Part shown: one piece after another, positions 4,583-51,619 of the stretch
How positions within the stretch are numbered: position 1 is the stretch's first letter
Layout: every line of letters starts with the position of its first letter
Origin: an uncultured Gammaproteobacteria bacterium
GTDB taxonomy: Bacteria > Patescibacteriota > Patescibacteriia > Patescibacteriales > GWC2-42-12
Direction: 5' to 3'
Assembly (NCBI GenBank): GCA_964467155.1
Contig: CAYXNZ010000003.1
Location: 1-51,649, forward strand
Length of the DNA: 51,649 nucleotides
Program-made: the position numbers and the translations under genes
Notes under the pieces: generated by a model
What the model saw: the letters and a program-made list of their open reading frames with translations, nothing else
What the model was told of the DNA's origin: nothing
The model's database searches: none

Positions 4583-4705
4583 AGACGTTGCATTGCAACG
4601 TCTCTACAATGCAACGTCTCTACAACGCAACGTCTCTACAACGCAACGTCTGTACGATGCAACGTCTGTACGATGCAACGTCTGTACGATGCAATGTCTG
4701 TACGA
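4577..4705. repeat. REP palindrome TTGTAGAGACGTTGCA-T-TGCAACGTCTCTACAA plus a tandem array of 7 x 16-nt right-arm units
   Basis: Perfect 16-bp inverted repeat at 4577-4609, overlapping the upstream TAG stop; 16-nt units at 4594-4705 drift from CTCTACAA to CTGTACGA. Confidence 0.92.
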
Positions 4706-4728
4706 TGCGGATATGATATAATATAAAA

Positions 4729-5448
4729 ATGGAGGAAATATTATTTAGAAATAAATATAGAATTAAATCGGCGCGTAGGGAAGAATATGATTATTCACAA
4801 AATGGATATTATTTTATAACGATTTGTACAAAAAATCGGGTATTATTGTTTGGTGATGTTGTAAACGATGAAATGATATTAAATAAAGCAGGAAAGATTT
4901 TAGAAAAATATTGGTTAGAAATTCCAAAACATTTTAAAAATGTAATATTGGATGAATATATTGTGATGCCAAATCATATTCATGGAATTGTTATTATCAA
5001 TAATGAAAATGATAAACGTAGAGACGTTGCAATGCAACGTCTGAACACCACAATGCAATCAAATAGAGACGTTGCCGGTGATAGAGACGTTGCCGGTGAT
5101 AGAGACGTTGCCGGTGATAGAGACGTTGCCGGTGGTAGAGACGTTGCCGGTGGTAGAGACGTTGCCGGTGGTAGAGACGTTGCAGTGCAACGTCTCTACG
5201 GGGGCGAACATATCGGGATGTCAAAAATATCGCCAAAATCAGGGACACTAGCTGTTATTATTAGATCATTTAAATCAATCGTAACAAAACAGGTAAACCA
5301 AAAATTAAAATTAGATGATATTATTTGGCAATCACGATTTTATGATCATATAATCAGGAATGAAAAATCATTAAATAGTATTAGGCAATATATAATTAAC
5401 AATCCATATAAATGGCATTTAGATCGTAATAATTTAAATTTATTGTAA
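4729..5448 (+). mobile_element. REP-associated tyrosine transposase (RAYT; IS200-like HUH/Y1 family)
   Basis: YFITICTKNR, HUH motif MPNHIHGIVII, WQSRFYDHIIR and catalytic-Tyr region RQYIINNP; cognate REPs upstream and inside the gene. Confidence 0.88.
5018..5199. repeat. In-frame REP cluster inside RAYT: palindrome 5018-5046, six 18-nt left-arm units 5064-5171, palindrome 5171-5199
   Basis: TAGAGACGTTGCCGGTG(A/G) x6 encoding (R)DVAG(D/G); flanking GTAGAGACGTTGCA-N-TGCAACGTCT palindromes. Confidence 0.92.
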
Positions 5449-5455
5449 TTAGATT

Positions 5456-7684
5456 ATGTCGCAAAAAATTTATTCAAATATATTAAAGAGCGGAATTTAT
5501 TTATCGTTTTTAATGGTTTTTATTGTTTCTAGTAAATTGCTCTACCCGTATATCACTGGTAAACAAATATTCTTTAATATTTTAATAGAAATATTATTTG
5601 TTTTTTGGATTAGCTATTTAATAAAATATCCATCAGGACGCCCAAAATTATCTTTGATTTGCTATGGATTGATAAGTTATTTCGTAGTGATTTTATTATC
5701 TTGTTTTTTTAGTGTCGATTTTAATCTCAGCTTCTGGGGAGACATTGAAAGAATGCTTGGTTTTTTTCATTTGATGCATTATCTGATTTTTTATTTTATT
5801 ATTATTACTGCTTTTAAAAGTTGGCGCGATTGGTTTTATGTTTTTTTATTGTCAGCAGGTACGGCTATAGCGGTTAGTTTTTATAGCTTGTTTAAGATTC
5901 ATTACAGTACTATCGGCAATACGGCTTATGTCAGTGGTTATATTATTTTCAACGTATTTTTTGCCTCAATTGCATATTTTAATTGGCGCAGTTTGGCTGA
6001 AAAAAATAAAAAAAACTGGGGTATTCTGCTGGGTTATATTTTCGCTATAATTTCCATGATAGCTGTTTTGAAAGCGACTAATACTCGAGGTGCTTATGTT
6101 GCTTTTGCTGTTAGTTTTATTGTCTTGGCAACTCTGATTATTTTTTTAGGAAAAAATAAAAAATTAAAACAATATTTTATAGCGTCTTCTATGGGACTTA
6201 TTTTATTGGTTAGTTTAGTGTTTGTTTACGCTGATAAACCGTTTGTAAAAAATATACCAGTTCTCAGAACAATCACTCAAATTACGCCATCAGCTACCAC
6301 TTTTCAAACTAGACTTATCTCATGGAAAGCAGCTTTGATAGATTTTCCAAATCATCCAGTCCTAGGCACGGGATTAGGAAATTTTGCGATTACTTTTGAT
6401 AAATATTTTGATCCGTCTTTTTATCGCTACACAGCTAGTGAAACATATTTTGATCGGGCACATAATAATTTAGTTGATATAATTTCGACAACTGGCTCTC
6501 TTGGGCTGATTGCTTATTTATCTATTTTTATAGCAGCTTTTTATTATTTGATGAGCGGTTACAGAAAAAGGAAAATTAGTCTATTAAATTTTGTTTTGCT
6601 AGTTTCATTAATTATTGCTTATTTTATACAGAATTTAGTTGTGTTTGATTCACAAGTTACTTATTTAGCATTAATGGTAATGCTTGGATATGTCTATTGG
6701 CTATCTCACGAGAAAGAAGAAGCTAACGATTTTAAACCATTAAATAATAAAGAAATTTTTACCATCGGTATTGTTGGTTTGATGATTTTAGGTATAATTT
6801 TTCAGTATAATTTTAAACCTTGGCAGATGATGAGAGAATCAATTAATGGGCAATATATTTTTGCTGATCAAGATATAGTTGGCGGTGTAAAAGCATATCA
6901 ACAAGCCTTGAGTTATAATACGGTATTGGATCGTGACAGTCGAACTAGCTTGATAAACATCGTTATTCCAGCTGCTGGTGTTTTAGAAAAACTTGATCGA
7001 GAAGAAGCTAAAGAGATTTTGAATTATGCAGTTGATATAGCTGAACAAAATATCAGATATAATCCACAAGACAGTATGATGCAAATGCAATTGTCACAAA
7101 TTTTGAATTTAACATCAGTTTTTTACCGCGAAGACAATTTAGATAAATTTTATTTTTATTCAGACCGAGCGCTAGAAGCAATAAATAAATCAATTGAAGT
7201 TAGCCCTGGTAGAACTAGATTGTATTTTGCTAAAGCACAGGTCTATGTCAGTCGAGATGAGTCTGATAATGCTATAAATGCTATTAATCAAGCTATTGGT
7301 TTAGACAGGGAATATGCTGAAGGATATTGTCGTTTATCAAAAGTAAATCTATTTTATCAGGATGAGACAAGTGCATTTAGTAATATGGACCAATGTTTAG
7401 CATTAGATGGAATTGGTTTTATAAATGATAATGATTTAGTTAAATACATGATAAATCATTACGCGCCTTTGAATGATTTTTCCAAGTTGGTAGTTCTGTA
7501 TGAAAAATTAGTTTCAAAAGAAAAAAATGATGCAACTTATTTCGTGAGTTTGGCTAAAATATATGCGCAGCTAGGTGAAATAGAAAAAGCAATTCAAGCA
7601 GTAGAGAAATCAGTTGAGCTAGAACCGTCTTTGAGAGAAAGCGCTAATCAGTTTATTCAACAATTAAGAAATAATAGTGGCTAA
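5456..7684 (+). CDS. Second O-antigen ligase-like/TPR membrane protein (paralog of 287-2497)
   Basis: Shared motifs SFWGD.ERM.GFF, TRGAY, YFDRAHN, Q..F.FD; TPR-like C-terminus. Confidence 0.8.
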   Translation: MSQKIYSNILKSGIYLSFLMVFIVSSKLLYPYITGKQIFFNILIEILFVFWISYLIKYPSGRPKLSLICYGLISYFVVILLSCFFSVDFNLSFWGDIERMLGFFHLMHYLIFYFIIITAFKSWRDWFYVFLLSAGTAIAVSFYSLFKIHYSTIGNTAYVSGYIIFNVFFASIAYFNWRSLAEKNKKNWGILLGYIFAIISMIAVLKATNTRGAYVAFAVSFIVLATLIIFLGKNKKLKQYFIASSMGLILLVSLVFVYADKPFVKNIPVLRTITQITPSATTFQTRLISWKAALIDFPNHPVLGTGLGNFAITFDKYFDPSFYRYTASETYFDRAHNNLVDIISTTGSLGLIAYLSIFIAAFYYLMSGYRKRKISLLNFVLLVSLIIAYFIQNLVVFDSQVTYLALMVMLGYVYWLSHEKEEANDFKPLNNKEIFTIGIVGLMILGIIFQYNFKPWQMMRESINGQYIFADQDIVGGVKAYQQALSYNTVLDRDSRTSLINIVIPAAGVLEKLDREEAKEILNYAVDIAEQNIRYNPQDSMMQMQLSQILNLTSVFYREDNLDKFYFYSDRALEAINKSIEVSPGRTRLYFAKAQVYVSRDESDNAINAINQAIGLDREYAEGYCRLSKVNLFYQDETSAFSNMDQCLALDGIGFINDNDLVKYMINHYAPLNDFSKLVVLYEKLVSKEKNDATYFVSLAKIYAQLGEIEKAIQAVEKSVELEPSLRESANQFIQQLRNNSG

Positions 7685-16085: not shown

Positions 16086-16148
16086 AAGCTGCCGCTTGGG
16101 CGTTACTTTTTGTAACCAAAAAGTACTCAAAAAGTCTTGGGGTGCTTT
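16086..16148. repeat. 63-nt dispersed repeat, copy 1, with hairpin TACTTTTTG-TAAC-CAAAAAGTA
   Basis: 59/63 identical to 29534-29596. Confidence 0.85.
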
Positions 16149-16150
16149 TA

Positions 16151-16175
16151 GATTCCCGCCTACGCGGGAATGACA
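16151..16175. repeat. REP-like palindrome GATTCCCGCCTACGCGGGAATGACA
   Basis: Same family as 1-193 and 49655-49748. Confidence 0.85.
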
Positions 16176-16191: not shown

Positions 16192-16231
16192 GGGCTGTAG
16201 CTTCCCGCTAGTCAGCGGGACAGGCAGCCCG
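16192..16231 (+). pseudogene. Possible collapsed tRNA relic GGGCTGTAGCT^CAG..CAGCCCG with an 18-nt palindrome inserted
   Basis: tRNA-like 5' start, perfect hairpin TCCCGCT-AGTC-AGCGGGA at 16203-16220, and CAGCCC complementary to the GGGCTG start. Confidence 0.4.
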
Positions 16232-16243
16232 CCAACACTTATT

Positions 16244-16422
16244 GGGGATATAGTTAAGTGGTATAACACAGCATTCGCACCTGCCCGCCATGGCTATTGG
16301 GCCTATGGTCTAGTGGTATGACATCGCATTCGCATTGCGGAGACGGCAGTTCGATTCTGCCTAGGTCCACAGGCGATGACAGGCGGGTTGCTGAATCCTG
16401 GGTTCGACTCCCAGTATCTCCA
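16244..16422 (+). tRNA. Interrupted (outer) tRNA-Ala(CGC): exons 16244-16279 and 16388-16422, with a 108-nt insertion at position 37/38
   Basis: Joined exons give a 71-nt cloverleaf: GGGGATA/TATCTCC with G3:U70, GTTA/TAAC, CAGCA/TGCTG, loop TTCGCAT, CTGGG/CCCAG, TTCGACT, A73. Confidence 0.85.
16299..16369 (+). tRNA. Intact (inner) tRNA-Ala(CGC), no encoded CCA
   Basis: GGGCCTA/TAGGTCC with G3:U70, GTC/GAC, TCGCA/TGCGG, anticodon CGC 16331-16333, GGCAG/CTGCC, TTCGATT, A73. Confidence 0.92.
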
Positions 16423-16797: not shown

Positions 16798-16877
16798 CGG
16801 ACTGTGGTATGAAGGTATTACGCGCGCTTCGTCACGAGATGAACTCGTGACTGCCATGGGTTTATCCCGTGGCGGGA
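16798..16877 (+). pseudogene. Orphan 5' half of tRNA-Pro(CGG) (positions 1-38) with a 43-nt double-hairpin insertion in the anticodon
   Basis: Matches the intact tRNA-Pro 5' half with 2 mismatches; insertion 16831-16873 = GTCACGAG/CTCGTGAC + GCCATGGG/CCCGTGGC; no 3' half found. Confidence 0.8.
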
Positions 16878-16926
16878 CTAAAAAATAATGACGTTAATAA
16901 ATTTATAAAAAATTCAAAATTGATTA

Positions 16927-16997
16927 CGGGCTGTGGTATAAAGGTATTACGCGCGCTTCGGGAGCGTGTAACCCCGGTTCAATTCCGGGCAGCCCGA
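16927..16997 (+). tRNA. tRNA-Pro(CGG), no encoded CCA
   Basis: CGGGCTG/CAGCCCG, CGCGC/GCGTG, loop TTCGGGA, CCCGG/CCGGG, TTCAATT. Confidence 0.93.
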
Positions 16998-17005
16998 CAC
17001 AAAAC

Positions 17006-19669: not shown

Positions 19670-20035
19670 ATGGATGACACAATATCAATAAAAGAATTAA
19701 AGGAAATTATAAAAAAATTTCGTGATGAGCGAGATTGGAAGCAGTTTCATGACGCTAAAAATCTTGCTGAAGCTATTTCGATAGAAGCTGCTGAACTCCA
19801 GGAGCTTTTTTTGTGGAAAAATGTAGATGAAATTAATAATAAGATTAAGAATGAGCCGGAGTATAGAAAAAAAATTGAATATGAATTAAGTGATGTTATT
19901 ACTTTTGCGCTAAATTTAGCCAATACTCTCGATATTGATGTAGCGAAAACTATTACGGAAAAAATTAAAATAAATAATAAGAGATATCCAGTCGATAAAG
20001 CTAGAGGGACGGCGGATAAATATGATAAGTTATGA
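19670..20035 (+). CDS. MazG-like nucleotide pyrophosphohydrolase
   Basis: FRDERDWKQFH, NLAEAISIEAAELQELFLW, ELSDV, RYPVDKARG...KY. Confidence 0.88.
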   Translation: MDDTISIKELKEIIKKFRDERDWKQFHDAKNLAEAISIEAAELQELFLWKNVDEINNKIKNEPEYRKKIEYELSDVITFALNLANTLDIDVAKTITEKIKINNKRYPVDKARGTADKYDKL

Positions 20036-21888
20036 TTGTTTATAAATCAACGAAGCAGGGTTTTAGTAATGATGTGGTAACAAATAAAATTGAGACTGCT
20101 ATTTATGATATTTTTCAGAAAAAATTAAAAAGAAAGACCACGATAAATGAAATGAATTCATGGAAAAATTCAATGATGTATATGCAGAACATTTTAGAGG
20201 ATAAAGAAATTCCAAGTGATTGTGGAGTTATGATAGAATACCAAATACCTCAAACCTCAAAAAGAATAGATTTTATTTTAACAGGCAAAGACGAAAGTGA
20301 TACAGATTACGCATTAATCATAGAGTTAAAACAATGGGAAAAGGCGCAAATCACGGAGAAGGACGGAATTGTTGAAACCTTCTTGGGAAAAGCTATTCGA
20401 GAAACCCCACATCCATCCTATCAAGCATGGTCTTATGCAGCTCTTCTCGAAGGATTTAATGAAGCCGTTTATGATGGGGAAATAAAAATTAAGCCTTGTG
20501 CTTATTTGCATAATTGCGCAGAAGGATATTCACTGAGAGATGATTTTTATTCGGCATATATAGATAAAGCACCATTATTTTTAAGACCGGACGTCTTAGA
20601 ACTTAGAGATTTTATAAAAAAATTTGTAAAAAAAGGTGATAGAGGGAAAGTTATTTATGAAATAGAAAATGGCAGAATTAAGCCTTCAAAAAGTTTAGCA
20701 GATAGTTTAGTCAAAATGCTTAAGGGTAATCAAGAATTTATAATGATTGATGATCAAAAAGTTATTTTCGAGACCGCAGTTGCGCTAGCAAAACAATCTT
20801 CTAAGAAACAAAAGAATGTATTAATAATAGAAGGAGGGCCGGGAACGGGCAAGTCAGTTGTGGCAATTAATCTTTTAGTAGAATTAACCAAACATGGGTT
20901 AGTAACTAAATATGTTACGAAAAATTTAGCACCGCGTACGGTTTATGCTAGTAAGCTGACAGGTTCAATGACCAAGACAGAAATCAATAATCTTTTTACG
21001 GGATCAGGAGTTTTTACAGAAGCTAAAGATAACATTTTTGATGCTCTAGTAGTCGATGAAGCCCATCGTCTAAATGAAAGATCAGGTTTATTTAGTAATT
21101 TCGGAGAAAACCAGATAAAAGAAATAATTAAATCGTCTAAATTTTCTATATTTTTCATTGACGAAAACCAAAAGGTAACTTTTAAGGATATTGGTAGAAA
21201 AGAGGAAATAGAAAAATGGGCAAAAAAACAAGGAGCCACTATTCATACAGGTGAATTAAAGTCTCAATTTAGGTGTAATGGCTCTGACGGATATTTATCT
21301 TGGCTAGATAATATTTTACAAATTAGAGAAACCGCTAATATTGATTTACAAGACATTAATTTTGATTTTAAAGTTATTGATGATCCCAATAAACTTAGAG
21401 ATATTATTTTTGAAAAGAATAAGATTAATAATAAAGCTCGATTAATTGCGGGATATTGTTGGGACTGGGTAAGTAGAAAAAATAAAGATGTTAACGACAT
21501 TATAATTCCGGAATATAATTTTAAGATGAAGTGGAATTTAGGTAAAGACGGAAATCTTTGGATTATTGCACCTGATTCTGTGAATGAAGTTGGATGTATT
21601 CACACTTGTCAGGGACTTGAACTAGATTACGTCGGGGTTATTATTGGGAATGATCTAATTGTTAGAAATAATGAAGTTTTAGTTGATCCGTCGGCAAGAG
21701 CTAAAACAGATCAATCTCTTAAGGGTTATAAGAAATTGTTAAAAGAAAATGAAAGTGAGGCGAAAGAAAAGGCTAGGGAGATTATTAAAAATACTTATAG
21801 AACTTTACTGACTCGAGGGATGAAGGGCTGTTATGTTTATTTTACAGATAAGGAAACAGAGAGATTTTTTAAGAGTAGGATGGAGTAA
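20032..21888 (+). CDS. DUF2075 (Schlafen group-3-like) helicase with N-terminal nuclease-like region
   Basis: IDFIL...IIELKQW, GGPGTGKS, VVDEAH, SQFRCNG, CIHTCQGLELDY, YRTLLTRG; ATGA overlap with the MazG-like gene. Confidence 0.88.
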   Translation: MIVYKSTKQGFSNDVVTNKIETAIYDIFQKKLKRKTTINEMNSWKNSMMYMQNILEDKEIPSDCGVMIEYQIPQTSKRIDFILTGKDESDTDYALIIELKQWEKAQITEKDGIVETFLGKAIRETPHPSYQAWSYAALLEGFNEAVYDGEIKIKPCAYLHNCAEGYSLRDDFYSAYIDKAPLFLRPDVLELRDFIKKFVKKGDRGKVIYEIENGRIKPSKSLADSLVKMLKGNQEFIMIDDQKVIFETAVALAKQSSKKQKNVLIIEGGPGTGKSVVAINLLVELTKHGLVTKYVTKNLAPRTVYASKLTGSMTKTEINNLFTGSGVFTEAKDNIFDALVVDEAHRLNERSGLFSNFGENQIKEIIKSSKFSIFFIDENQKVTFKDIGRKEEIEKWAKKQGATIHTGELKSQFRCNGSDGYLSWLDNILQIRETANIDLQDINFDFKVIDDPNKLRDIIFEKNKINNKARLIAGYCWDWVSRKNKDVNDIIIPEYNFKMKWNLGKDGNLWIIAPDSVNEVGCIHTCQGLELDYVGVIIGNDLIVRNNEVLVDPSARAKTDQSLKGYKKLLKENESEAKEKAREIIKNTYRTLLTRGMKGCYVYFTDKETERFFKSRME

Positions 21889-21892
21889 AAAA

Positions 21893-21946
21893 GTTTATAA
21901 GTTATATGGATTAACTGATGAGGAAGTAAAAATTGTTGAAGAATAA
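21893..21946 (+). pseudogene. C-terminal remnant resembling a Type IIG restriction-modification enzyme
   Basis: Reads VYKLYGLTDEEVKIVEE*, like the terminal helix of Eco57I/TaqI-C-type proteins; no start codon or upstream body. Confidence 0.55.
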
Positions 21947-22025
21947 AAATAAAAATAAAATAGTTATCCACATTGTTTTCCTAGTACCAGGAAAACAATA
22001 ATTTAATTTAATTTTATTAAAATAC

Positions 22026-22841
22026 ATGGCAAATGAAATTGTTGTCGCTTCTTTAAATGAAGATTTTGAAAGTATAAAAAAAATAGATAAAAATGGGATT
22101 GAATACTGGGAAGCCAGAGAATTAATGCCGATTTTAGGTTACGCAAAATGGCAAAATGCAGAGGAGGTAATAGCTAGGGCGGCTAGAGCTTGCATTAATA
22201 GCGGTCAGCTTGTGGATAACCATTTTACTGGGTTTAGTAAAATGGTCAAAATTGGTTCAGATTCGGTAAGGGAAGTAAGGAATTGGAAATTGGACCGTTA
22301 TGCTTGTTATTTGATTGCTCAAAATGGTGATTCAAAAAAATCAGAAATCGCTTTGGCTCAAACATATTTCGCTATCCAAACCAGAAAACAAGAAATTTTT
22401 GAGCAACTTACTGAAGCAGACAAAAGACTTTTTATTAGAGGTGAAGTGACTGCGGAGAATAAAAAATTGTTTAGTACGGCCAAGCGAGCAGGCGTAACAA
22501 AATTTGGATCTTTTAATGACGCTGGTTATCGCGGTTTATATGGTAGGCCGTTAAATGAAATTGAAAAGAAAAAAAGCATAAGAAAAGGTGAATTGTTGGA
22601 TCGAGCTGGAAAAACTGAGTTAGCCGCTAATTTATTTCGAATTACGCAAACAGATGAGAAAATAAAGAAAGATAATATTAAGGGAAACGATCAAGCGTCA
22701 AGAACTCATTTTATGGTAGGCGGTAAAGTTCGGCAAACTATTAAAGATATCGGTGGCACAACCCCTGAAAATTTATCACCAGAGAGACATATTAAAGAAT
22801 TAAAAAGTGAAAAGAAAAAAAGTTTGAAAGAAAATAATTAA
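22026..22841 (+). CDS. dinD: DNA damage-inducible protein D (BRO-like N-terminus)
   Basis: EYWEAREL..LGY.KW, LDRYACYLIAQNGD, AQTYFAIQTR.QE, ELAANLFRITQT, VGGKVRQTI. Confidence 0.88.
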   Translation: MANEIVVASLNEDFESIKKIDKNGIEYWEARELMPILGYAKWQNAEEVIARAARACINSGQLVDNHFTGFSKMVKIGSDSVREVRNWKLDRYACYLIAQNGDSKKSEIALAQTYFAIQTRKQEIFEQLTEADKRLFIRGEVTAENKKLFSTAKRAGVTKFGSFNDAGYRGLYGRPLNEIEKKKSIRKGELLDRAGKTELAANLFRITQTDEKIKKDNIKGNDQASRTHFMVGGKVRQTIKDIGGTTPENLSPERHIKELKSEKKKSLKENN

Positions 22842-22845
22842 AAAT

Positions 22846-23547
22846 ATGTCAGACGACACTATTTTAAATACATCTAGAGATTCCAGCGAGGCAAACCCGT
22901 CTGTTGTCGAGGCAGGTTCGTCTACACCTAGCGATTCTGGCGAGGCAGGCCCGCCTGTCGTAGAGGCAAACCCGCCTACACCTGGCGGTTTCGGCGAGGC
23001 AGGCCCGCCTACGTCTAATGACTCCGGCGAGGCAAGTAAAATTAATTCGCTTCCTACGGAGCAAGCAGAGTCTTTGGTTACGCCACCTATTGCGGAGAGT
23101 GAGGTAGAAGTTAAGGAAGAAAAGTCTGGAGATTCTATCGCTCCACTCCAGAATGACAAGGCTCCGGTTCAGAATGACAAAGAGGAAGAAAAAGTTTTAG
23201 ATTCTATCGCTCCACTCCAGAATGACAAGGCTCCGGTTCAGAATGACAAAGTGGAAGAAGCTGTAATCCCAGCGCCTGAACCTAAGATTTCTTTTGCTGA
23301 AAGGTTTCTAGAGCATATGAAGAAGATGAGAGAGCGAGCGAATTTCAAGCGGGTGGAAAATATTGAAAAAAATTTAGAAATTATCATAAAGGAGGCTTGG
23401 AAAACTGAAAAGATTACTAATAATGACGTTGAGCGGGTATGCGGAGTAAGCGACAGAACGGCCCTAAGGTATCTTAAAAAACTCGTGAAAACTGGCAAAT
23501 TAATGCGTTTTGGCGAGGGTACAAACATACACTATAAACCTTTGTGA
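22846..23547 (+). CDS. Protein with repeat-rich disordered N-terminus and C-terminal winged HTH
   Basis: EA(G/N)P repeats, two DSIAPLQNDKAPVQNDK units, C-terminal ITNNDVE..CGVSDRTALRYLKKL...G.GT...Y. Confidence 0.7.
   Translation: MSDDTILNTSRDSSEANPSVVEAGSSTPSDSGEAGPPVVEANPPTPGGFGEAGPPTSNDSGEASKINSLPTEQAESLVTPPIAESEVEVKEEKSGDSIAPLQNDKAPVQNDKEEEKVLDSIAPLQNDKAPVQNDKVEEAVIPAPEPKISFAERFLEHMKKMRERANFKRVENIEKNLEIIIKEAWKTEKITNNDVERVCGVSDRTALRYLKKLVKTGKLMRFGEGTNIHYKPL
23131..23249. repeat. Two identical 50-nt in-frame units GATTCTATCGCTCCACTCCAGAATGACAAGGCTCCGGTTCAGAATGACAA
   Basis: Copies at 23131-23180 and 23200-23249; GATTC...GAATGAC ends resemble the REP family at 16151. Confidence 0.85.
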
Positions 23548-25125: not shown

Positions 25126-25383
25126 ATGTGGCATGTTTATATCGTAAAATGTAAGGATAAGACTTTTTATACTGGTGTGACAACTGATTTAAAAAGAAGA
25201 GTTGAAGAACATAATACCTCAACCTTAGGCGCAAAATATACCAAAGGGCGTCGCCCAGTAAAATTAGTTTATTCAATTAGGAAAAAAGATAAATCAGAAG
25301 CGCAAAAAGAAGAGTACCGAATAAAAAAATTATCTAGGATAGAAAAAATTAATATAATCAAAAAATTATGGAAGAAGAAGTGA
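25126..25383 (+). CDS. GIY-YIG nuclease (UPF0213/YhbQ-like)
   Basis: HVYIVKCKDKTFYTGVTTDLKRRVEEHN, GAKYTKGRRPVKLVY. Confidence 0.9.
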   Translation: MWHVYIVKCKDKTFYTGVTTDLKRRVEEHNTSTLGAKYTKGRRPVKLVYSIRKKDKSEAQKEEYRIKKLSRIEKINIIKKLWKKK

Positions 25384-29533: not shown

Positions 29534-29617
29534 AAGCTGCCGCTTGGGCATTACTTTTTGTGACCAAAAAGTAATCAAAAAGTCTTGGGGTACTTTATTC
29601 CCCGCCAGTCGGCGGGG
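29534..29617. repeat. 63-nt dispersed repeat, copy 2, followed by palindrome CCCCGCCAGTCGGCGGGG
   Basis: 59/63 identical to 16086-16148; palindrome at 29600-29617. Confidence 0.85.
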
Positions 29618-39396: not shown

Positions 39397-40971
39397 ATGA
39401 TAGAAAAAAGTAGTGATAAAAAGATAAATTCACCAATGATTTTGGTTGTTCTCGATGGTTGGGGTATTACAGAAGCTAATAAAGGTAATGCTATAACATC
39501 AGCTAAAACTCCTGTTATAGATAATTTAACCAAAGAATATCCATATACCGAAATTTATGCGCATGGTAAATATGTCGGCTTGCCACCAACACAGGACGGT
39601 AATAGTGAAGCTGGGCATATGAATATCGGTGCCGGCAGGGTAGTTGAGCAAGATGCTGTTAAGATTTGCAAAAGCATAAATAACGGAACATTTTTTAAAA
39701 ACCCCGCTTTTTTAGAAGGCATACGTCATGTTAAAAATAATAATTCTAATTTACACTTAATGGGCATGCTGTCTAACGGCATGAGTGCTCATAGTGATCC
39801 AGATCATATTTTAGCTTTGTTAACATTAGCCAGGCAAATGGATGTTAAAAATGTTTATTTGCATTTATTTACTGACGGTCGTGATTCGCCTAAGTATGCA
39901 TCATTAAAATTAGTTGAAGATATACAAAGAACATTTAAAAACGGTGAAGCAATCGCTACGATTATTGGTAGATTCTATGCTATGGACAGAAAGAAAAGAT
40001 GGGATCGAAGTGAAAAAACTTACAATGCTTTAGTAAATGGAGTTGGATTAAAGGCTGAATCAGCTCAAGCAGCTATAACAGAAGCTTATAATCGTGGAGA
40101 AAATGATGAATTTATTGAACCTTATATTCTTAGTAAAAACGGTAAGCCAACGCCAAGGATTAGTAATAACGATAGTGTTATATTTTTTAACTTAAGGTCA
40201 GATCGAGCCAGACAATTAGCAAAAGTTTTTGTGCAGAATAATTTTTGTGAAAAAAATAAGTATTGTTTTTCACGCGCTAAAGTTTTAAAAAATGTTAGAT
40301 TTATTGCTATGACTGATTTCGGGCCAGATTTAGATAATATGATGACAGCTTACCCTGGAGTTGATTTAAAAGAAACGCTACCAATGCAATTGAGAAATAT
40401 TAAACAGCTTTATCTAGCTGAAACTGAAAAATACGCTCATGTAACTTATTTTTTAAATGGTGGTTATGCCGATCCAATTGACGATGAGATTAGAGAGGTT
40501 GTTGCTTCACCTGATGTTAAATATTATGACAAAACACCAGCTATGAGCTCTGGACTTTTGACAAAAAAAATAATCAGTTATTTAAAAGTCAAGAAATTTG
40601 ATTTTATTTTTGTAAATTATGCTGCCCCTGATATGATAGGTCATACTGGTAATTTACAGGCAGGCATTGAATGCTGTCAAAAGGTAGATCAATATTTAGG
40701 AGAAGTAATAAAAGCTTATTTAGCTGTCGGTGGCACAGTTCTTGTCACTGCTGACCATGGCAATGTTGAAGAAATGATTAATATGAAAACAGGGGAGATT
40801 GATACCGAACATTCTGTCAATAAAGTACCTTTTATTGTAGTTAACGATAAATTAAAGAAGAAAATTAGTTTAAAAAAATCTGGCTCTTTATGCGATGTCG
40901 CTCCGACTGTTTTACAGTTACTAGGTTTAGACAAGCCAAAAATTATGAAGGGCAATAGTTTAATAAAATAA
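39397..40971 (+). CDS. gpmI: 2,3-BPG-independent phosphoglycerate mutase, copy 1
   Basis: LDGWG, GNSEAGH, FTDGRD, GRFYAMDR, AETEKYAHVT, DMIGHTG, TADHGN. Confidence 0.94.
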   Translation: MIEKSSDKKINSPMILVVLDGWGITEANKGNAITSAKTPVIDNLTKEYPYTEIYAHGKYVGLPPTQDGNSEAGHMNIGAGRVVEQDAVKICKSINNGTFFKNPAFLEGIRHVKNNNSNLHLMGMLSNGMSAHSDPDHILALLTLARQMDVKNVYLHLFTDGRDSPKYASLKLVEDIQRTFKNGEAIATIIGRFYAMDRKKRWDRSEKTYNALVNGVGLKAESAQAAITEAYNRGENDEFIEPYILSKNGKPTPRISNNDSVIFFNLRSDRARQLAKVFVQNNFCEKNKYCFSRAKVLKNVRFIAMTDFGPDLDNMMTAYPGVDLKETLPMQLRNIKQLYLAETEKYAHVTYFLNGGYADPIDDEIREVVASPDVKYYDKTPAMSSGLLTKKIISYLKVKKFDFIFVNYAAPDMIGHTGNLQAGIECCQKVDQYLGEVIKAYLAVGGTVLVTADHGNVEEMINMKTGEIDTEHSVNKVPFIVVNDKLKKKISLKKSGSLCDVAPTVLQLLGLDKPKIMKGNSLIK

Positions 40972-40977
40972 AAATAA

Positions 40978-42564
40978 ATGGAAATATTAAAAAAACCAAA
41001 ACCAGTAGTACTGGTAATAATGGATGGCTGGGGTATAACCCAGCCTTATTCTGGCAATGCGATTAGTCAAGCCAATACTCCAAATATCAATGATTACATT
41101 TCTAGGTATCCCTCAATGACATTAAGAGCATCAGGTGAAGCAGTTGGTTTACCATGGGGTGAAAGTGGTAATAGCGAAGTTGGTCATATTAACTTAGGTC
41201 TTGGTAGAATATTATACCAAGATTTACCAAAAATAAATAAAGCTATCGCTGATAATATTTTTTATGAAAATGAAGCTTTATTAAATGCAATCAATCATGC
41301 TAAAAAGAATAAGTCAAATTTACATTTAATGGGATTGTTGTCTAGTGGTGGTATTCATTCATCAATTGAGCATTTGGAGGCTCTCCTAGCTTTAATGGAA
41401 AAAGAAAATTTTAAGAATTTTTATATACATGTAATTCTTGATGGACGAGATACGCCGTATAACAGCGGATTAAATTTTGTAAAACAAATCGAAAAAGATT
41501 TGAGCGATTATGGTCAGGGCGCGGTTGCTACTTTGTCAGGTCGGTTTTATGCCATGGACAGAGATAATCATTGGGATAGAATAGAAAAAGTTTACCGAGC
41601 AATGGTTTTTGGCGAGGGAAATAAAAGCATTTCGGCAACCGAAGCAATTGAGGCAAGTTATGGTAAAAAAATATATGATGAAGAATTTGTACCAACAGTT
41701 ATTGAAAAAAACGGACAACCAGTAGCGCAGATTAAAGCAAATGACGCAATTATTTTCTTTAATTTTAGAGCAGATCGTGCTAGACAAATTACCAAAGCTT
41801 TTGCTTTGCCTGGATTAGAAAAATTTAAAAGAGGAGAATATCTAAAAAATCTTTTATTTGTTTGTTTTACTGAATATGAATCAAGTTTACCTGTAGAAGT
41901 AGCTTTTTCAGCTGAAGTAGTGGAAGATACTTTGGGTGAAACAATTTCTAAAAACAATTTAAAACAATTAAGAATTGCTGAAACTGAGAAATATGCTCAC
42001 GTTACTTATTTTTTCAATGGTGGGCGAGAAGACAAAATGGACGGTGAAGAGCATATTCTGGTGCCATCGCCTCAGGTTGCTAGCTACGACATGAAACCAG
42101 AAATGTCAGCTCCAGAATTAACTAATAAATTGATCAAAGCTATTGAATCAGATAATTATGATTTTATTTTAGTGAATTATGCTAACCCTGACATGGTCGG
42201 ACATACTGGGAATATTAAAGCAGCAGCTAGAGCAGTTGAAGCTGTTGATACTTGTGTTAGCAAGGTAGTTAAATCAGTGTTAGCTAAAAGTGGTATGGTT
42301 TTTTTGACAGCTGATCATGGTAACGCTGAAGTAATGTTTAATATGCAAACTGGTATGATAGACAAAGAACATACATCCAATCCAGTACCATTTATAGTTA
42401 TTAGTAAAGAATTTGAAGGAAAGAATGCCATGAAACAAGATGCTCCAGGTGGAGATTTAAGTCTATTACAACCACAAGGTATTTTGTCTGATGTTGCACC
42501 AACGATTTTACATGTTATGGGATTAAATAAACCAAAAAAAATGTCTGGTCGTAGCTTAGTTTAA
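40978..42564 (+). CDS. gpmI: 2,3-BPG-independent phosphoglycerate mutase, copy 2
   Basis: MDGWG, GNSEVGH, LDGRD, GRFYAMDRD, AETEKYAHVT, DMVGHTG, TADHGN. Confidence 0.94.
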   Translation: MEILKKPKPVVLVIMDGWGITQPYSGNAISQANTPNINDYISRYPSMTLRASGEAVGLPWGESGNSEVGHINLGLGRILYQDLPKINKAIADNIFYENEALLNAINHAKKNKSNLHLMGLLSSGGIHSSIEHLEALLALMEKENFKNFYIHVILDGRDTPYNSGLNFVKQIEKDLSDYGQGAVATLSGRFYAMDRDNHWDRIEKVYRAMVFGEGNKSISATEAIEASYGKKIYDEEFVPTVIEKNGQPVAQIKANDAIIFFNFRADRARQITKAFALPGLEKFKRGEYLKNLLFVCFTEYESSLPVEVAFSAEVVEDTLGETISKNNLKQLRIAETEKYAHVTYFFNGGREDKMDGEEHILVPSPQVASYDMKPEMSAPELTNKLIKAIESDNYDFILVNYANPDMVGHTGNIKAAARAVEAVDTCVSKVVKSVLAKSGMVFLTADHGNAEVMFNMQTGMIDKEHTSNPVPFIVISKEFEGKNAMKQDAPGGDLSLLQPQGILSDVAPTILHVMGLNKPKKMSGRSLV

Positions 42565-49132: not shown

Positions 49133-49540
49133 ATGAAAAAATTAATTATTTATACTGACGGAGGTGCTCGCGGTAATCCTGGTCCATCTGGGATTGGCGC
49201 TGTTTTGTTAGATGAAAACAGGGGAGTCGTTAAAGAATTATCTAGATATATTGGGAAAGCGACTAATAATCAGGCTGAATATCAGGCTTTGATTATGGCA
49301 CTTGATGAAGCAAAAAAAATAGGCGTAAAAGAAGTAGATGTATTTATGGATAGTGAACTCATTGTTAAACAAATAAATAGAGAATATAAGGTAAAAAATA
49401 AAGATTTAGCACCGTTATTTATTAAAGTCTACAATTTAACTTTAAATTTTTCTAAAGTAAATTTTACGCATGTACGAAGAGAACAGAATAAACGGGCAGA
49501 TGAGCTTGTTAATTTAGCAATTGATAAAGCTTTAGGATAA
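49133..49540 (+). CDS. rnhA: Ribonuclease HI family protein
   Basis: YTDGGARGNPG, ATNNQAEY, MDSEL...Q, HVRREQNKRAD. Confidence 0.9.
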   Translation: MKKLIIYTDGGARGNPGPSGIGAVLLDENRGVVKELSRYIGKATNNQAEYQALIMALDEAKKIGVKEVDVFMDSELIVKQINREYKVKNKDLAPLFIKVYNLTLNFSKVNFTHVRREQNKRADELVNLAIDKALG

Positions 49541-49543
49541 TTG

Positions 49544-49599
49544 GGACGCATAGCTTCCGCCTTCTCCGCCAGCCGGCGGATACGGCGAGACAAGCCAGT
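49544..49599 (+). pseudogene. tRNA-Val 5' fragment 1 (GGACGCATAGCT^CAGT) with a 40-nt nested palindromic insertion
   Basis: Identical to the first 16 nt of the intact tRNA-Val once 49556-49595 is removed. Confidence 0.7.
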
Positions 49600-49654
49600 C
49601 TTAATTAGTATTTTAGTCAGATAAACCCGTTGTTTTAAAGAAATAAATAACACT

Positions 49655-49748
49655 TTCTGTCATTCCTGGCGAGCGATTTTATCCTTTTGTCATTCATGGC
49701 GAGTGATTTTATCCCCCCCCCATGTCATTTCCGTGTAGGCGGGAATCT
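49655..49748. repeat. GTCATTCC...GGGAATCT REP-family cluster with duplicated left-arm units
   Basis: TGTCATTC(C/A)TGGCGAG(C/T)GATTTTATCC twice, then GTCATTTCCGTGTAGGCGGGAATCT. Confidence 0.7.
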
Positions 49749-49767
49749 ATTTTTAAAATCCAATTTG

Positions 49768-49863
49768 GGACGCATAGCTCCCACCCATTTTTTTTACAAA
49801 TGGTCGGGCAGGCAGTTGGTTACCCGCCCGACCGAATGACTTCGGTTGTTCGGGCGGGGAGCG
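49768..49863 (+). pseudogene. tRNA-Val 5' fragment 2 (first 27 nt) with two palindromic insertions flanking the D-loop
   Basis: GGACGCATAGCT [49780-49812] CAGTTGGTTA [49823-49858] GAGCG; joined, it is identical to the intact tRNA-Val 5' end. Confidence 0.85.
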
Positions 49864-49931
49864 ACTTTTTCTTCTGTTATTCCCTGTGAGCGATAGCGAG
49901 GGAAGGGAATCTATTTTTAAAATCTAGTTTG

Positions 49932-50005
49932 GGACGCATAGCTCAGTTGGTTAGAGCGCATGATTCACATTCATGAGGTCGAAGGTTCAAATCCCTCTGC
50001 GTCCA
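49932..50005 (+). tRNA. tRNA-Val(CAC), no encoded CCA
   Basis: GGACGCA/TGCGTCC, GCTC/GAGC, CATGA/TCATG, loop TTCACAT, T-arm GAAGG/CCCTC (one mismatch), TTCAAAT. Confidence 0.92.
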
Positions 50006-50007
50006 CT

Positions 50008-50637
50008 ATGAAAAGAAGAGTAGAAGAAATCATAATATTTTCATTTATTGCAGTTTTATTTATCCTGTCATCTTATTTGGCGCATGTTTATAGTGCGGAG
50101 TTGAGTAGTTTACCGTTACTTAATAGTCAAGCAGGTCATCTGGCGTATGTTTTAATCATGGCAGGTGCGGTTATTATAGCGCCGGCAGAGACATTGCCTC
50201 TTTTGCCAATTGCTGTTTCTATCTGGGGAGCGAATTTAGCGGCTATACTAACAATTCTTGGTTGGGTTGTTGGTTCAATGGTAGCTTTTTTTATTGCCAG
50301 AAAGTTTGGTAGAAAAATTGTACATCGTTTTGTAAAAAAATATGATATAGATGAATTAAAAGAAGCTTTGCCTAAAAAGAATTTATTTTGGGCAGTTGCC
50401 TTTGCGCGTATTTTTTTACCAGTTGATATAGTCAGCTATGCGGTTGCTTTATTTACCAGTATGCATTGGCTTGTTTATTTAACAGCGACATTGTTGGGAA
50501 CTTCAGTTTTTGCTTTTTTGTTTGCCTATGGCGCGGAATTACCAATGTATTTACAAGTAGTTGCTGGTATTATAATTATAATTTTTATTATTTTTGAATA
50601 TCGTAATATAAGAAAGCGTTTAAAAGAATTATTTTAA
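50008..50637 (+). CDS. VTT/DedA (SNARE-associated) membrane protein; start moved to ATG 50008 because the ORF-track start lies inside tRNA-Val
   Basis: LTILGWVVGSMVAFFIARKFGR, ARIFLP.DIVSY..AL, Y..ATLLG. Confidence 0.8.
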   Translation: MKRRVEEIIIFSFIAVLFILSSYLAHVYSAELSSLPLLNSQAGHLAYVLIMAGAVIIAPAETLPLLPIAVSIWGANLAAILTILGWVVGSMVAFFIARKFGRKIVHRFVKKYDIDELKEALPKKNLFWAVAFARIFLPVDIVSYAVALFTSMHWLVYLTATLLGTSVFAFLFAYGAELPMYLQVVAGIIIIIFIIFEYRNIRKRLKELF

Positions 50638-51212: not shown

Positions 51213-51619
51213 TAATATCAAGGTAAGCGGACGATTACCCCGCCGAATCGGCGGGGAGGAAAGTCCGGACTCCTGCCACGCTTTTTGTGTGGTGTCATGG
51301 CAGTGGGTAACGCCCACCAAGAGTAATTTTAGGGAAAGTGCCACAGAGACAATACTAGTCCCGAGTTCTCGGGATGAAAGGTGAAAAGTTATACAGTGTT
51401 TATGTTGCGAATGGATATCCACGCAACTTAGGCTACGTATATTTTACGCTGGTGACAGCGATAGATGGTAAACCCTGCCTGGAGCAAGAGCAAACCTTTG
51501 AGTAACCAAAGATGAAAAGTGGCTCGCTTGATCCCGAGAGCAATTTCGGGACTAGATAGATAATCGTCATTCCAAGCAATTGGAATACAAAATCCGGCTT
51601 ATAACTTGCCTTGATATTA
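51213..51619 (+). ncRNA. rnpB: RNase P RNA
   Basis: GAGGAAAGTCCGGAC, GGAAAGTGCCACAGA, GGTAAACCC..CTGGAGCAAG, ACAAAATCCGGCTTAT; P1 helix 51213-51227/51605-51619. Ends approximate. Confidence 0.95.

Follow-up and report, generated by a model that had tools for sequence, protein, structure and literature searches.

Why is a single tRNA-Val gene preceded by two truncated copies of its own 5′ end? The question is raised by a stretch of 51,649 nucleotides (contig CAYXNZ010000003.1 of assembly GCA_964467155.1; hereafter, the window), whose host, judging from the names attached to homologous proteins, appears to be a Falkowbacteria-like member of the Patescibacteria, or Candidate Phyla Radiation (CPR). 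Between its genes for RNase HI and for a VTT/DedA-type membrane protein lies a stack of three tRNA-Val 5′ ends, which an initial annotation, made from the letters alone, ascribed to the repeated integration of a tiny module bounded by repetitive extragenic palindromes (REPs), with an integrase or HUH enzyme to be sought in the genome. We give about an even chance to the following answer: the stack is what remains of a mobile cassette, now decayed, that broke the gene and supplied it with a new 5′ end, and whose unit was then duplicated once. The weakest link in this reading is the step that calls upon a small GIY-YIG nuclease.

Three copies of the tRNA-Val 5′ end

The 51.6-kb window contains GGGACGCATAGCT at exactly three places (49543, 49767 and 49931), a number reached in none of 100 dinucleotide-preserving shuffles even when two mismatches were permitted. 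Exact searches, shuffles, ARAGORN and Rfam agree with the first description of the locus in that there are three copies, the third of which is intact. The parts of the stack and its two neighbouring genes, all on the plus strand, are as follows.

49133-49540, +, RNase HI gene (from the list of open reading frames, ORFs; PF00075 is on record for an identical protein)
49543-49555, +, fragment 1, a displaced tRNA-Val 5′ end (exact match; G at -1 plus tRNA positions 1-12)
49556-49596, +, GC-rich imperfect hairpin directly 3′ of fragment 1 (TCCGCC..GGCGGA core; GC island)
49655-49714, +, two tandem 30-nt units TTYTGTCATTCMTGGCGAGYGATTTTATCC, half-REP repeats (repeat family D1, 90%)
49723-49749, +, REP hairpin TGTCATTTCCGTGTAGGCGGGAATCTA followed by a T-run, terminator-like (terminator-like call; its right arm opens the 40-nt repeat)
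49741-49780, +, 40-nt direct repeat, copy 1 (REP arm, AT-rich stretch with TAAAAT, fragment 2; family D2)
49781-49866, +, GC-rich hairpin complex 3′ of fragment 2 (inverted repeat I8, direct repeat D11)
49875-49913, +, degenerate, expanded REP TGTTATTCCC..GGGAAGGGAATCTA (third member of repeat family D1)
49905-49944, +, 40-nt direct repeat, copy 2, extending into the live gene (family D2, 95%)
49932-50006, +, intact tRNA-Val(CAC) (ARAGORN; Rfam tRNA, 70.8 bits)
50008-50637, +, VTT/DedA-type membrane protein gene (PF09335)

The two fragments are shorter than first thought. Fragment 1, credited with 16 nt and one insertion, consists of 13 contiguous nt. Fragment 2, described as 27 nt with two insertions, does retain 14 nt (49767-49780, tRNA positions -1 to 13) and the D-loop 10-mer CAGTTGGTTA, but its third piece, GAGCG, is not safely tRNA-derived because it falls within a repeat unit shared with the module that follows fragment 1 (GGNGAGCGAYTTT); this homology between modules weakens the view that fragment 2 is a twice-interrupted tRNA in which GAGCG is retained. 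The D-loop 10-mer sits at the apex (49813-49822) of an 11-bp hairpin with arms at 49802-49812 and 49823-49833, and the fold of 49767-49870 (-42.1 kcal/mol, z -3.0) was equalled in stability by none of 200 shuffles. The hairpin that follows fragment 1 (49556-49596) folds at -22.4 kcal/mol with a modest z of -1.7.

The direct repeat noted upstream of copies 2 and 3, GGGAATCTATTTTTAAAATC(CAA/TAG)TTTGGGACGCATAGCTC (49741-49780 and 49905-49944), does open in the right arm of the REP, and its two copies are 95% identical. The modules that separate successive 5′ ends measure 164-224 nt and share one order: 5′ end, GC hairpin, half-REP repeats, REP, AT-rich stretch. The tandem units of module 1 at 49655-49714 are homologous to positions 49856-49882 of module 2, and the module interiors align with a score of 24 against 14.8 ± 2.1 for shuffled sequences, a value reached by 1 of 500 shuffles, the homologous stretch being GGCGAGCGATTTTATCCTTTTGTCATTC in one and GGGGAGCGACTTTTTCTTCTGTTATTC in the other. 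Since the two modules are diverged copies of one unit, the stack may record one invasion followed by one duplication of the unit: of the proposed repeated integration, the insertion that displaced 5′ ends stands, and its repetition may not.

The hairpins of the stack are either of the REP type or of the CCTGCCCGCC/GGCGGGCAGG type, which also flanks the nested tRNA-Ala described below. Within the stack no Rfam family besides tRNA reached its threshold; the FtrB match over the REP hairpin stays below it (19.4 bits, E 1.6) and reflects that hairpin only, which the FtrB consensus also holds.

An insertion that replaced the 5′ end of the gene

The RNase HI protein of the window is present on 12 contigs from varied samples and assemblers. 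A 471-nt region of the locus is 100% identical in 6 contigs and carries one mismatch in a seventh; since these seven contigs, from separate samples and assemblers, hold the same 471 nt, the stack is no artefact of assembly, an explanation that we rule out. Copy number does vary across strains, as the initial annotation had suggested checking. In L010, an eighth contig, ...GGATACGGCGAG of module 1 is joined straight to GCAGGCAGTTGGTTACCCGCCCGACCGA of module 2, and 215 nt together with one fragment are absent. Because the left part is identical to module 1 and the right part to module 2, L010 is best read as a recombinant in which two units collapsed into one.

The ancestral state is provided by L014, a relative with 83% RNase HI identity, in which the site is empty: the RNase HI TAA is followed by 4 nt, an intact tRNA-Val, 2 nt and the VTT ATG. 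In the window, the RNase HI stop codon lies 2 nt upstream of fragment 1, which is placed relative to this stop as the intact tRNA of L014 is (the ancestral left junction), and the VTT ATG lies 1 nt 3′ of the live tRNA-Val, as in L014 (the ancestral right junction). As the left junction is found at fragment 1 and the right one at the live gene, 390 nt were inserted into the tRNA-Val gene. That new DNA entered it also follows from the upstream flanks of fragment 1 and of the live gene, which are unrelated. This division of the ancestral junctions, set against the bare gene of L014, supports the view that the fragments are displaced 5′ ends, and comparison of the junctions shows the inserted DNA to be the source of both a new upstream region (REP, AT-rich stretch with TAAAAT) and the fresh 5′ end of the gene. 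A displaced native fragment thus stands beside a functional gene whose end was supplied by the insert.

In relatives, tRNA-Val lies 3-6 nt past the RNase HI stop. No partial tRNA-Val copy was found at nine further loci where tRNA-Val adjoins RNase HI (L019-L022, L027, L028, L030, L041 and L047), nor at L038, where the gene lies ~80 nt downstream of RNase HI. Among 14 tRNA loci of other relatives, scars outside the lineage of the window were seen only in the species of L015-L017 (an 83% relative). There, the intact tRNA abuts RNase HI, a 32-nt, 91% identical 3′ fragment abuts VTT, the anticodon arm is replaced by a foreign hairpin, and a 130-nt indel separates contigs that share one RNase HI protein.

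Two further observations concern this neighbourhood. At L013 (93% RNase HI identity, positions 487-930), the 5′ half of tRNA-Val runs, in the anticodon loop, into the 3′ half of a tRNA with a CAU anticodon, with loss of acceptor stem pairing; this fusion is followed by a terminator, then by a GIY-YIG ORF of 85 aa and lastly by the tRNA 3′ part once more, again with a terminator, and the downstream genes, MacB and a sigma-54 activator, are unusual for CPR. This locus is either a real recombinant or a chimeric assembly, GC content being undecisive, and owing to this ambiguity we do not use it as evidence. In L020 (2513-2860) and in L021 and L022 (7690-8088), which have 70% RNase HI identity, an IS200-like Y1 transposase gene lies between lepA and recJ; the matching position of the window holds intergenic sequence only. 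A separate RecJ search of genome contigs returned only distant homologues from other phyla.

Scars at the other tRNA genes of the window

Modules at other tRNAs, which the initial annotation had proposed to look for, are present at both of the other tRNAs of the window, so that all three carry scars; the refuting conditions set by that annotation were checked and did not refute it. The features of these two loci are the following.

16798-16831, +, displaced tRNA-Pro(CGG) 5′ half, 34 nt (BLAST over 30 nt, 96.7% identity, E 3e-11)
16831-16873, +, double hairpin: GTCACGAG-ATGAA-CTCGTGAC, T, GCCATGGG-TTTAT-CCCGTGGC (fold z -3.7)
16874-16926, +, AT-rich spacer of 53 nt, the position of a GIY-YIG ORF in sister strains (comparison with L107, L112 and L109)
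16927-16998, +, intact tRNA-Pro(CGG) (ARAGORN, Rfam)
16244-16422, +, outer tRNA-Ala(CGC), split in the anticodon loop (108-nt insert at ~16281-16388; halves at 16244-16280 and 16388-16422)
16299-16370, +, inner, different, intact tRNA-Ala(CGC) within the 108-nt insert (ARAGORN, Rfam)

The displaced tRNA-Pro copy begins 9 nt past the stop of the preceding gene and is broken in the anticodon loop after TTCG. Contigs that share one holin-like protein (P0122) differ downstream of its gene. L109 resembles the window, with a 5′ fragment, the double hairpin, an AT-rich spacer of ~55 nt and an intact tRNA-Pro. In L106, L107, L108 and L112, an 89-aa ORF starts directly after ...GTTAATAAATTT, the end of the double hairpin, and encodes a GIY-YIG catalytic domain alone (PF01541, 56.6 bits). 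The end of this ORF is reached in L107 and L112, where it reads ...AAA CAA TTT CGG GCT GTG GTA TAA, so that the last five codons double as the 5′ end of the next tRNA-Pro copy and the TAA of the D-loop serves as stop codon. That next copy is also interrupted in L107, as the hairpin sequence TCACG follows before the contig ends. The AT-rich spacer of L109 and of the window retains the sequences that flank the ORF on both sides, and would most simply be an ORF-less remnant; alternatively, the ORF may have been inserted into a pre-existing spacer. In L110, whose holin-like protein is 89% identical, the Pro module is formed by a 5′ fragment and 10-nt upstream flank duplicated ~700 nt apart. A tiny REP-bounded module is an unlikely mobile unit: at tRNA-Pro, its equivalent in sister strains has the 89-aa GIY-YIG ORF where the window has the spacer.

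At tRNA-Ala, a different tRNA of the same specificity is nested within the broken gene. When the outer halves (16244-16280 and 16389 onward) are joined, ARAGORN calls a tRNA-Ala(cgc), and the inner and outer genes have only 23 nt in common, with 3 mismatches. The same layout is found in L107 and L109, where the neighbouring holin-like protein is 91% identical, and L110 (89%) has a plain tRNA-Ala at this site. Upstream of the nested gene, at 16192-16234, lies a third tRNA remnant, GGGCTGTAGCT|TCCCGC...CAGCCCGCCA, whose GC hairpin starts after tRNA position 12, as in Val fragments 1 and 2.

Across the three genes, the replacement differs from the displaced segment to varying extents: the 13-14 nt of Val are identical, the 34 nt of Pro have 2 differences, and Ala shares 23 nt with 3 mismatches. 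Empty sites and polymorphism accompany these modules, with L014 empty and L010 holding one unit at tRNA-Val, and with L109 lacking and L107 holding the ORF at tRNA-Pro.

The 16192-16234 remnant keeps acceptor strands GGGCTG and CAGCCC, then GCCA, its interior being replaced by the hairpin. In the matching place of L107 (~975-1015), a hairpin ACAGG-TAGTTGGTAGA-CCTG leads into CCCGCC, with a loop of D-loop sequence like that of Val fragment 2. Several breakpoints share the motif CCTGCCCGCC/GGCGGGCAGG.

The GIY-YIG gene and the double hairpin in other genomes

The GIY-YIG protein of L107 has ~2000 homologues, and the few with a named source are mostly from CPR, with some from Lentisphaerae. We viewed the genomic context of three: L113 and L114, unrelated genomes in which the pattern recurs, and P0241, which is the L107 locus (L112). 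L113 (GCA_040961635.1; 75% GIY-YIG identity) starts with a tRNA-Pro 5′ fragment broken after TTCG, followed by the double hairpin in inverted orientation; its GIY-YIG ORF ends ...TAT CGG GCC GTG GCC TAA within a second 5′ fragment, after which come an intact, different tRNA-Pro(CGG) set between inverted repeats and, at a greater distance, the 3′ end of the outer gene. L114 (71% identity) holds a tRNA-Ser-like 5′ fragment with hairpins, the GIY-YIG ORF, a second fragment with hairpins and an intact tRNA-Ser(CGA). An endonuclease ORF is therefore found between fragment and functional copy at the Pro locus (L106, L107, L108 and L112), in L113 and in L114. Downstream of the tRNA-Ser(CGA) of L114 (2996-3179), there are at least three tandem 81-nt units (start to start; hairpin-1 motif at 3023 and 3104), in each of which the last 16 nt of tRNA-Ser (AATCCTCCTCCCACCG) are followed by a spacer and the double hairpin. 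Here it is 3′ ends that are stacked, in a mirror image of the Val stack, and the contig ends within the array.

In the double hairpin the two cores, CGAG-ATGAA-CTCG and GGG-TTWAT-CCC, are invariant, whereas the outer stems vary. The element of the window recurs in L107, L109, L113 and L114; in five distinct sequences (a small sample), 73 of 73 cells pair and three pairs are compensatory, a score for pairing and covariation that none of 500 shuffles matched. In the 740 kb examined there are 11 occurrences of the hairpin-1 motif GAGATGAACTC, each of them beside a tRNA fragment. The full pattern has no match in viral contigs; a 15-mer of the double hairpin has at least 120 there, none with hairpin 2 nearby, which we attribute to chance.

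Small GIY-YIG ORFs also interrupt another RNA gene. The RNase P RNA gene contains one on the same strand in each of three CPR relatives, L019 (10796-11569), L028 (~6658-7500) and L064 (3317-4025, minus). In L019 and L028 the ORF occupies the same peripheral helix, with complementary flanking arms (CCCCTCTTCAG...CTGAGGAGGGG in L028), and in L064 it is known by its position inside the gene only. The RNase P RNA of the window (51219-51617) has a plain hairpin at that helix.

A cassette that may replace what it breaks

How might such a stack arise? In the reading we favour, a small cassette would have entered tRNA-Val in the D-arm region, its right end carrying its own upstream sequence and a replacement tRNA 5′ end, so that the function of the gene was preserved, with the original 5′ end stranded beside RNase HI. 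The unit would then have been duplicated once, either because the restored gene was invaded again or through unequal recombination, and its two copies would have diverged through indels of hairpins and REPs. By analogy with the Pro locus, the Val cassette most likely once held a small GIY-YIG nuclease gene. The nuclease would cleave a tRNA gene that is still uninterrupted, and repair of the break would copy the cassette into it, a form of homing without an intron. Upon repair from a cassette-bearing allele, the displaced fragment would provide homology on the left and the remainder of the tRNA homology on the right, and conversion tracts of variable length would give variable breakpoints. The restored gene would stay a target, and repeated events or unequal exchange could therefore build stacks. 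We infer that a GIY-YIG gene was once present in the Val stack, that its product cuts tRNA genes and that the mechanism is homing.

Several observations weigh against this account. Firstly, tblastn and blastn searches of the Val stack returned no significant GIY-YIG coding remnant, and no ORF stands between its tRNA copies; the double hairpin, present at 16831-16873, is likewise absent from the stack (49541-49931). Secondly, the GIY-YIG proteins have 85-98 aa, PF01541 covers nearly all of this length and there is no second domain: the combination of catalytic and DNA-binding domains of the Seg or I-Tev type was not found. Lacking the DNA-binding domain of characterised homing endonucleases, these proteins are at most putative site-specific nucleases. 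Thirdly, small GIY-YIG ORFs also occur away from tRNAs, as does the 85-aa ORF at 25126-25383 of the window, and could be secondary passengers of AT-rich spacers; cargo moreover varies, as the Pro module of L110 holds a 132-aa ORF of no known family, which is not GIY-YIG. Fourthly, a restored tRNA would keep any target site, and self-cutting would have to be tolerated or avoided. Finally, the difference at the Pro locus may reflect either loss of the ORF in L109 and the window or its gain in L107, and foreign origin of the new Val 5′ end cannot be shown since only 13-14 nt are common.

Two resemblances are too weak to count as evidence: that of TATTTTTAAAATCCAATTT|GGGACG to the end of the L107 ORF, TATATTAAAACAATTT|CGGGCT, and that of GATAAACCCG (49620-49629) to half of hairpin 2.

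Duplication, integrases or a functional array

Could duplication within the locus suffice? Tandem duplication of a stretch that held the upstream region and 5′ end of the tRNA, through slippage or unequal crossing-over between REPs, together with proliferation of REPs and GC hairpins that later entered dead copies, would build an array with no cassette directed at tRNA genes. The derivation of modules 1 and 2 from one unit, with later divergence, agrees with such a history, as does the resemblance of L010 to the product of an unequal crossover, and the window has the materials, namely REPs and tandem half-REP arrays elsewhere (1-190 and 16149-16175) and a RAYT-like gene. Duplication combined with a history of REPs, and no targeting nuclease, thus explains the second unit as well as the favoured reading does, but explains neither the first unit nor the nested tRNA-Ala. 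It cannot make fragment 1, which has the RNase HI flank whereas the live gene has a new upstream region, only TT and 13 nt being common to the two; it also leaves unexplained why the nested tRNA-Ala diverges in sequence and why a GIY-YIG ORF is fused to a tRNA-Pro 5′ end in three genomes. We therefore regard local duplication as an unlikely explanation of the locus as a whole.

Nor does the RAYT-like gene fit the REPs of the stack. Copies or halves of GTCATTCC..GGGAATGAC are found at several intergenic sites (1-190, 16149-16175, 49658-49749 and 49875-49913), and the REP at 49723-49749 is 92.6% identical to the minus-strand REP at 16149-16175, just upstream of tRNA-Ala (E 7e-6). The single RAYT-like HUH protein of the window (4729-5448) matches PF01797 with 28 bits and NF047646 with 71 bits, below the cutoff of 80, and has the HUH motif as HIH. 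However, its gene is preceded (repeats and gene together, 4583-5448) by tandem 16-nt repeats CAACGTCTCTACAATG / CAACGTCTGTACGATG and not by the GTCATTCC REP, so that it is flanked by a different repeat family. A run of RDVAGD/RDVAGG repeats inside its coding sequence apparently derives from the same GACGTTGCA palindrome, and this REP therefore seems to have invaded its own transposase gene. With this protein flanked by another repeat, and with no recombinase among the ORFs of at least 90 aa in the window, movement of the module by an integrase or HUH enzyme is unlikely.

Other repeats and gene clusters of the window are recorded here. The window opens (1-190) with four tandem 20-nt half-REP units AGCGGGAATGACAAGAGAGA, followed at 113-168 by a composite REP with a nested GC insert and then by two more half-REPs. 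A sequence of ~62 nt, AAGCTGCCGCTTGGGCRTTACTTTTTGTRACCAAAAAGTAMTCAAAAAGTCTTGGGGTRCTTT, occurs twice (16088-16150 and 29534-29598) with ~92% identity and an internal hairpin; a GC hairpin lies 3′ of each copy (the REP at one site, TTCCCCGCCAGTCGGCGGGGTAA at the other), and the sequence may be a small mobile element or a small RNA gene. At 19670-23547, genes for a MazG-like protein and a Schlafen-group-3-type helicase (PF09848, E 7e-109) cluster with those for a Bro-N domain protein and a repeat-rich protein whose coding repeats are GC-rich and in tandem; the cluster may represent an island of defence or of mobile genes. Two paralogous genes for cofactor-independent phosphoglycerate mutase lie side by side at 39397-42561 (products of 524 and 528 aa), a tandem that strikes us as unusual for a reduced genome.

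Integrase-type elements offer another source of tRNA scars. tRNA genes are classic targets of integration, as Williams reportedly set out in 2002, and elements whose attachment site (attP) carried the 5′ part of tRNA-Val could have left att-site scars before being almost wholly deleted. The topology fits, with a displaced fragment, an element and a gene restored with an element-derived end, and partial duplication of the tRNA flanks the insert in both cases; L015-L017 even show the usual displaced 3′ fragment. But in Pfam scans none of the 45 window ORFs with 90 aa or more matched a tyrosine or serine recombinase, and no such gene was seen in any module or next to the inserted DNA. The modules, moreover, are tiny at 164-224 nt, their cargo, where present, is a GIY-YIG ORF or the 132-aa ORF, and their breakpoints vary by locus between D-arm and anticodon loop, while the Ala insert is a simple insertion with no duplicated core. 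Integrases typically replace the 3′ part of a tRNA and not its 5′ part; no element of the window lies downstream of a tRNA and duplicates its 3′ part, the duplicated part being the 5′ one and lying upstream, and the 3′ type was met in L015-L017 only. We consider this explanation improbable. A phage origin of the attachment site was also considered: the tRNA-Val 5′ 28-mer matched a single phage tRNA array (L023) in the viral scan, and GGGAATCTATTTTTAAAATC gave two chance matches in AT-rich coding DNA.

Lastly, it is very improbable that the 5′ fragments, REP terminators and AT-rich boxes were built as insulators, promoters or processing decoys uncoupling tRNA-Val from RNase HI, for although a terminator-like REP with T-run and a TAAAAT box precede both fragment 2 and the live gene, and the one 3′ acceptor strand could pair with any of the three 5′ copies (inverted repeats I10-I12), none of the other relatives has the array, which is also polymorphic within the species, its units are decaying by indels, a promoter scan found no canonical promoter in it, and any function would be secondary to its origin.

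Known systems and significance

The principle of a mobile gene that compensates for the damage it causes has precedents. In the mitochondria of Glomus (atp6, atp9, cox2, nad3) and Allomyces macrogynus (atp6), endonuclease ORFs termed mORFs bring a replacement gene end, and the native C-terminus of the hybrid gene is left as a displaced duplicate; the enzyme is of the LAGLIDADG family, or GIY-YIG in atp9 (PMC3630166). The loci described here share with mORFs the displaced native end, the empty sites in close relatives and a replacement that is possibly foreign, as for the nested tRNA-Ala. They differ in that mORFs affect the 3′ (C-terminal) end of protein-coding genes in an organelle, whereas here the 5′ end of a tRNA gene is replaced on a bacterial chromosome, the ORF lies upstream and reads into the tRNA, and the Val stack itself is without an ORF. 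In phage T6, the GIY-YIG enzyme SegB drives recombination-dependent tandem amplification of a unit made of tRNA and segB, the tRNA's 5′ end and segB's 3′ end sharing microhomology (PMC13096335); SegB, a free-standing homing endonuclease of T4 and T6, cleaves in the tRNA gene region (PMC2330249). There, as here, a GIY-YIG gene adjoins tRNA genes, but SegB has a DNA-binding part and amplifies whole tRNA genes in a phage, whereas here the catalytic domain stands alone, the copies are partial and the genome is cellular.

Double-hairpin elements were reportedly described by Paquin, Laforest and Lang in 2000 in Allomyces mitochondrial DNA (as listed in PMC3787672). Such elements are reportedly mobile and found together with gene ends and endonuclease ORFs. 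They are, like ours, short pairs of GC-rich hairpins in an AT-rich genome, but have no sequence relation to the bacterial double hairpin, which belongs to the Pro and Ser loci and not to the Val stack. Tyrosine-integrase elements likewise restore the tRNA with their own sequence, but here there is no integrase, the part replaced is the 5′ and not the 3′ one, the modules are tiny and the breakpoints vary. As in systems of REPs or bacterial interspersed mosaic elements (BIMEs) with RAYT, GC-rich intergenic palindromes occur here in several copies and orientations, with a RAYT-like gene in the window, albeit one flanked by another repeat family; to our knowledge, REPs do not duplicate gene parts.

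Full-text searches of the literature turned up no account of GIY-YIG cassettes at the tRNA genes of CPR bacteria. The principle is already known from organelles and phages; its recurrence at CPR tRNA genes is apparently undescribed, with the Val stack as a decayed example. We tentatively propose, at somewhat less than even odds, that Falkowbacteria-like CPR bacteria host a new class of intron-less homing elements with a GIY-YIG catalytic domain only, often accompanied by the double hairpin. These would invade tRNA genes with a replacement half or a whole xenologous copy, and also a peripheral helix of RNase P RNA, and their re-invasion would generate stacks, nested tRNAs and horizontal replacement of tRNAs, the Val stack being a decayed instance.

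Stacks of this kind can confuse tRNA annotation and break metagenome assemblies, and several of the contigs end inside repeats. The minimal GIY-YIG proteins (85-95 aa) would be candidate structure- or sequence-specific nucleases. If our reading is true, the tRNA genes of ultra-small bacteria are invaded without an intron, by an invader that makes itself harmless by carrying a spare part of its target. This would account for tRNA pseudo-fragments, nested tRNAs and swollen intergenic regions in the very compact genomes of CPR bacteria, would provide a route to horizontal replacement of tRNA genes, and would extend to bacterial chromosomes a strategy that we found described only for fungal mitochondria and T-even phages.

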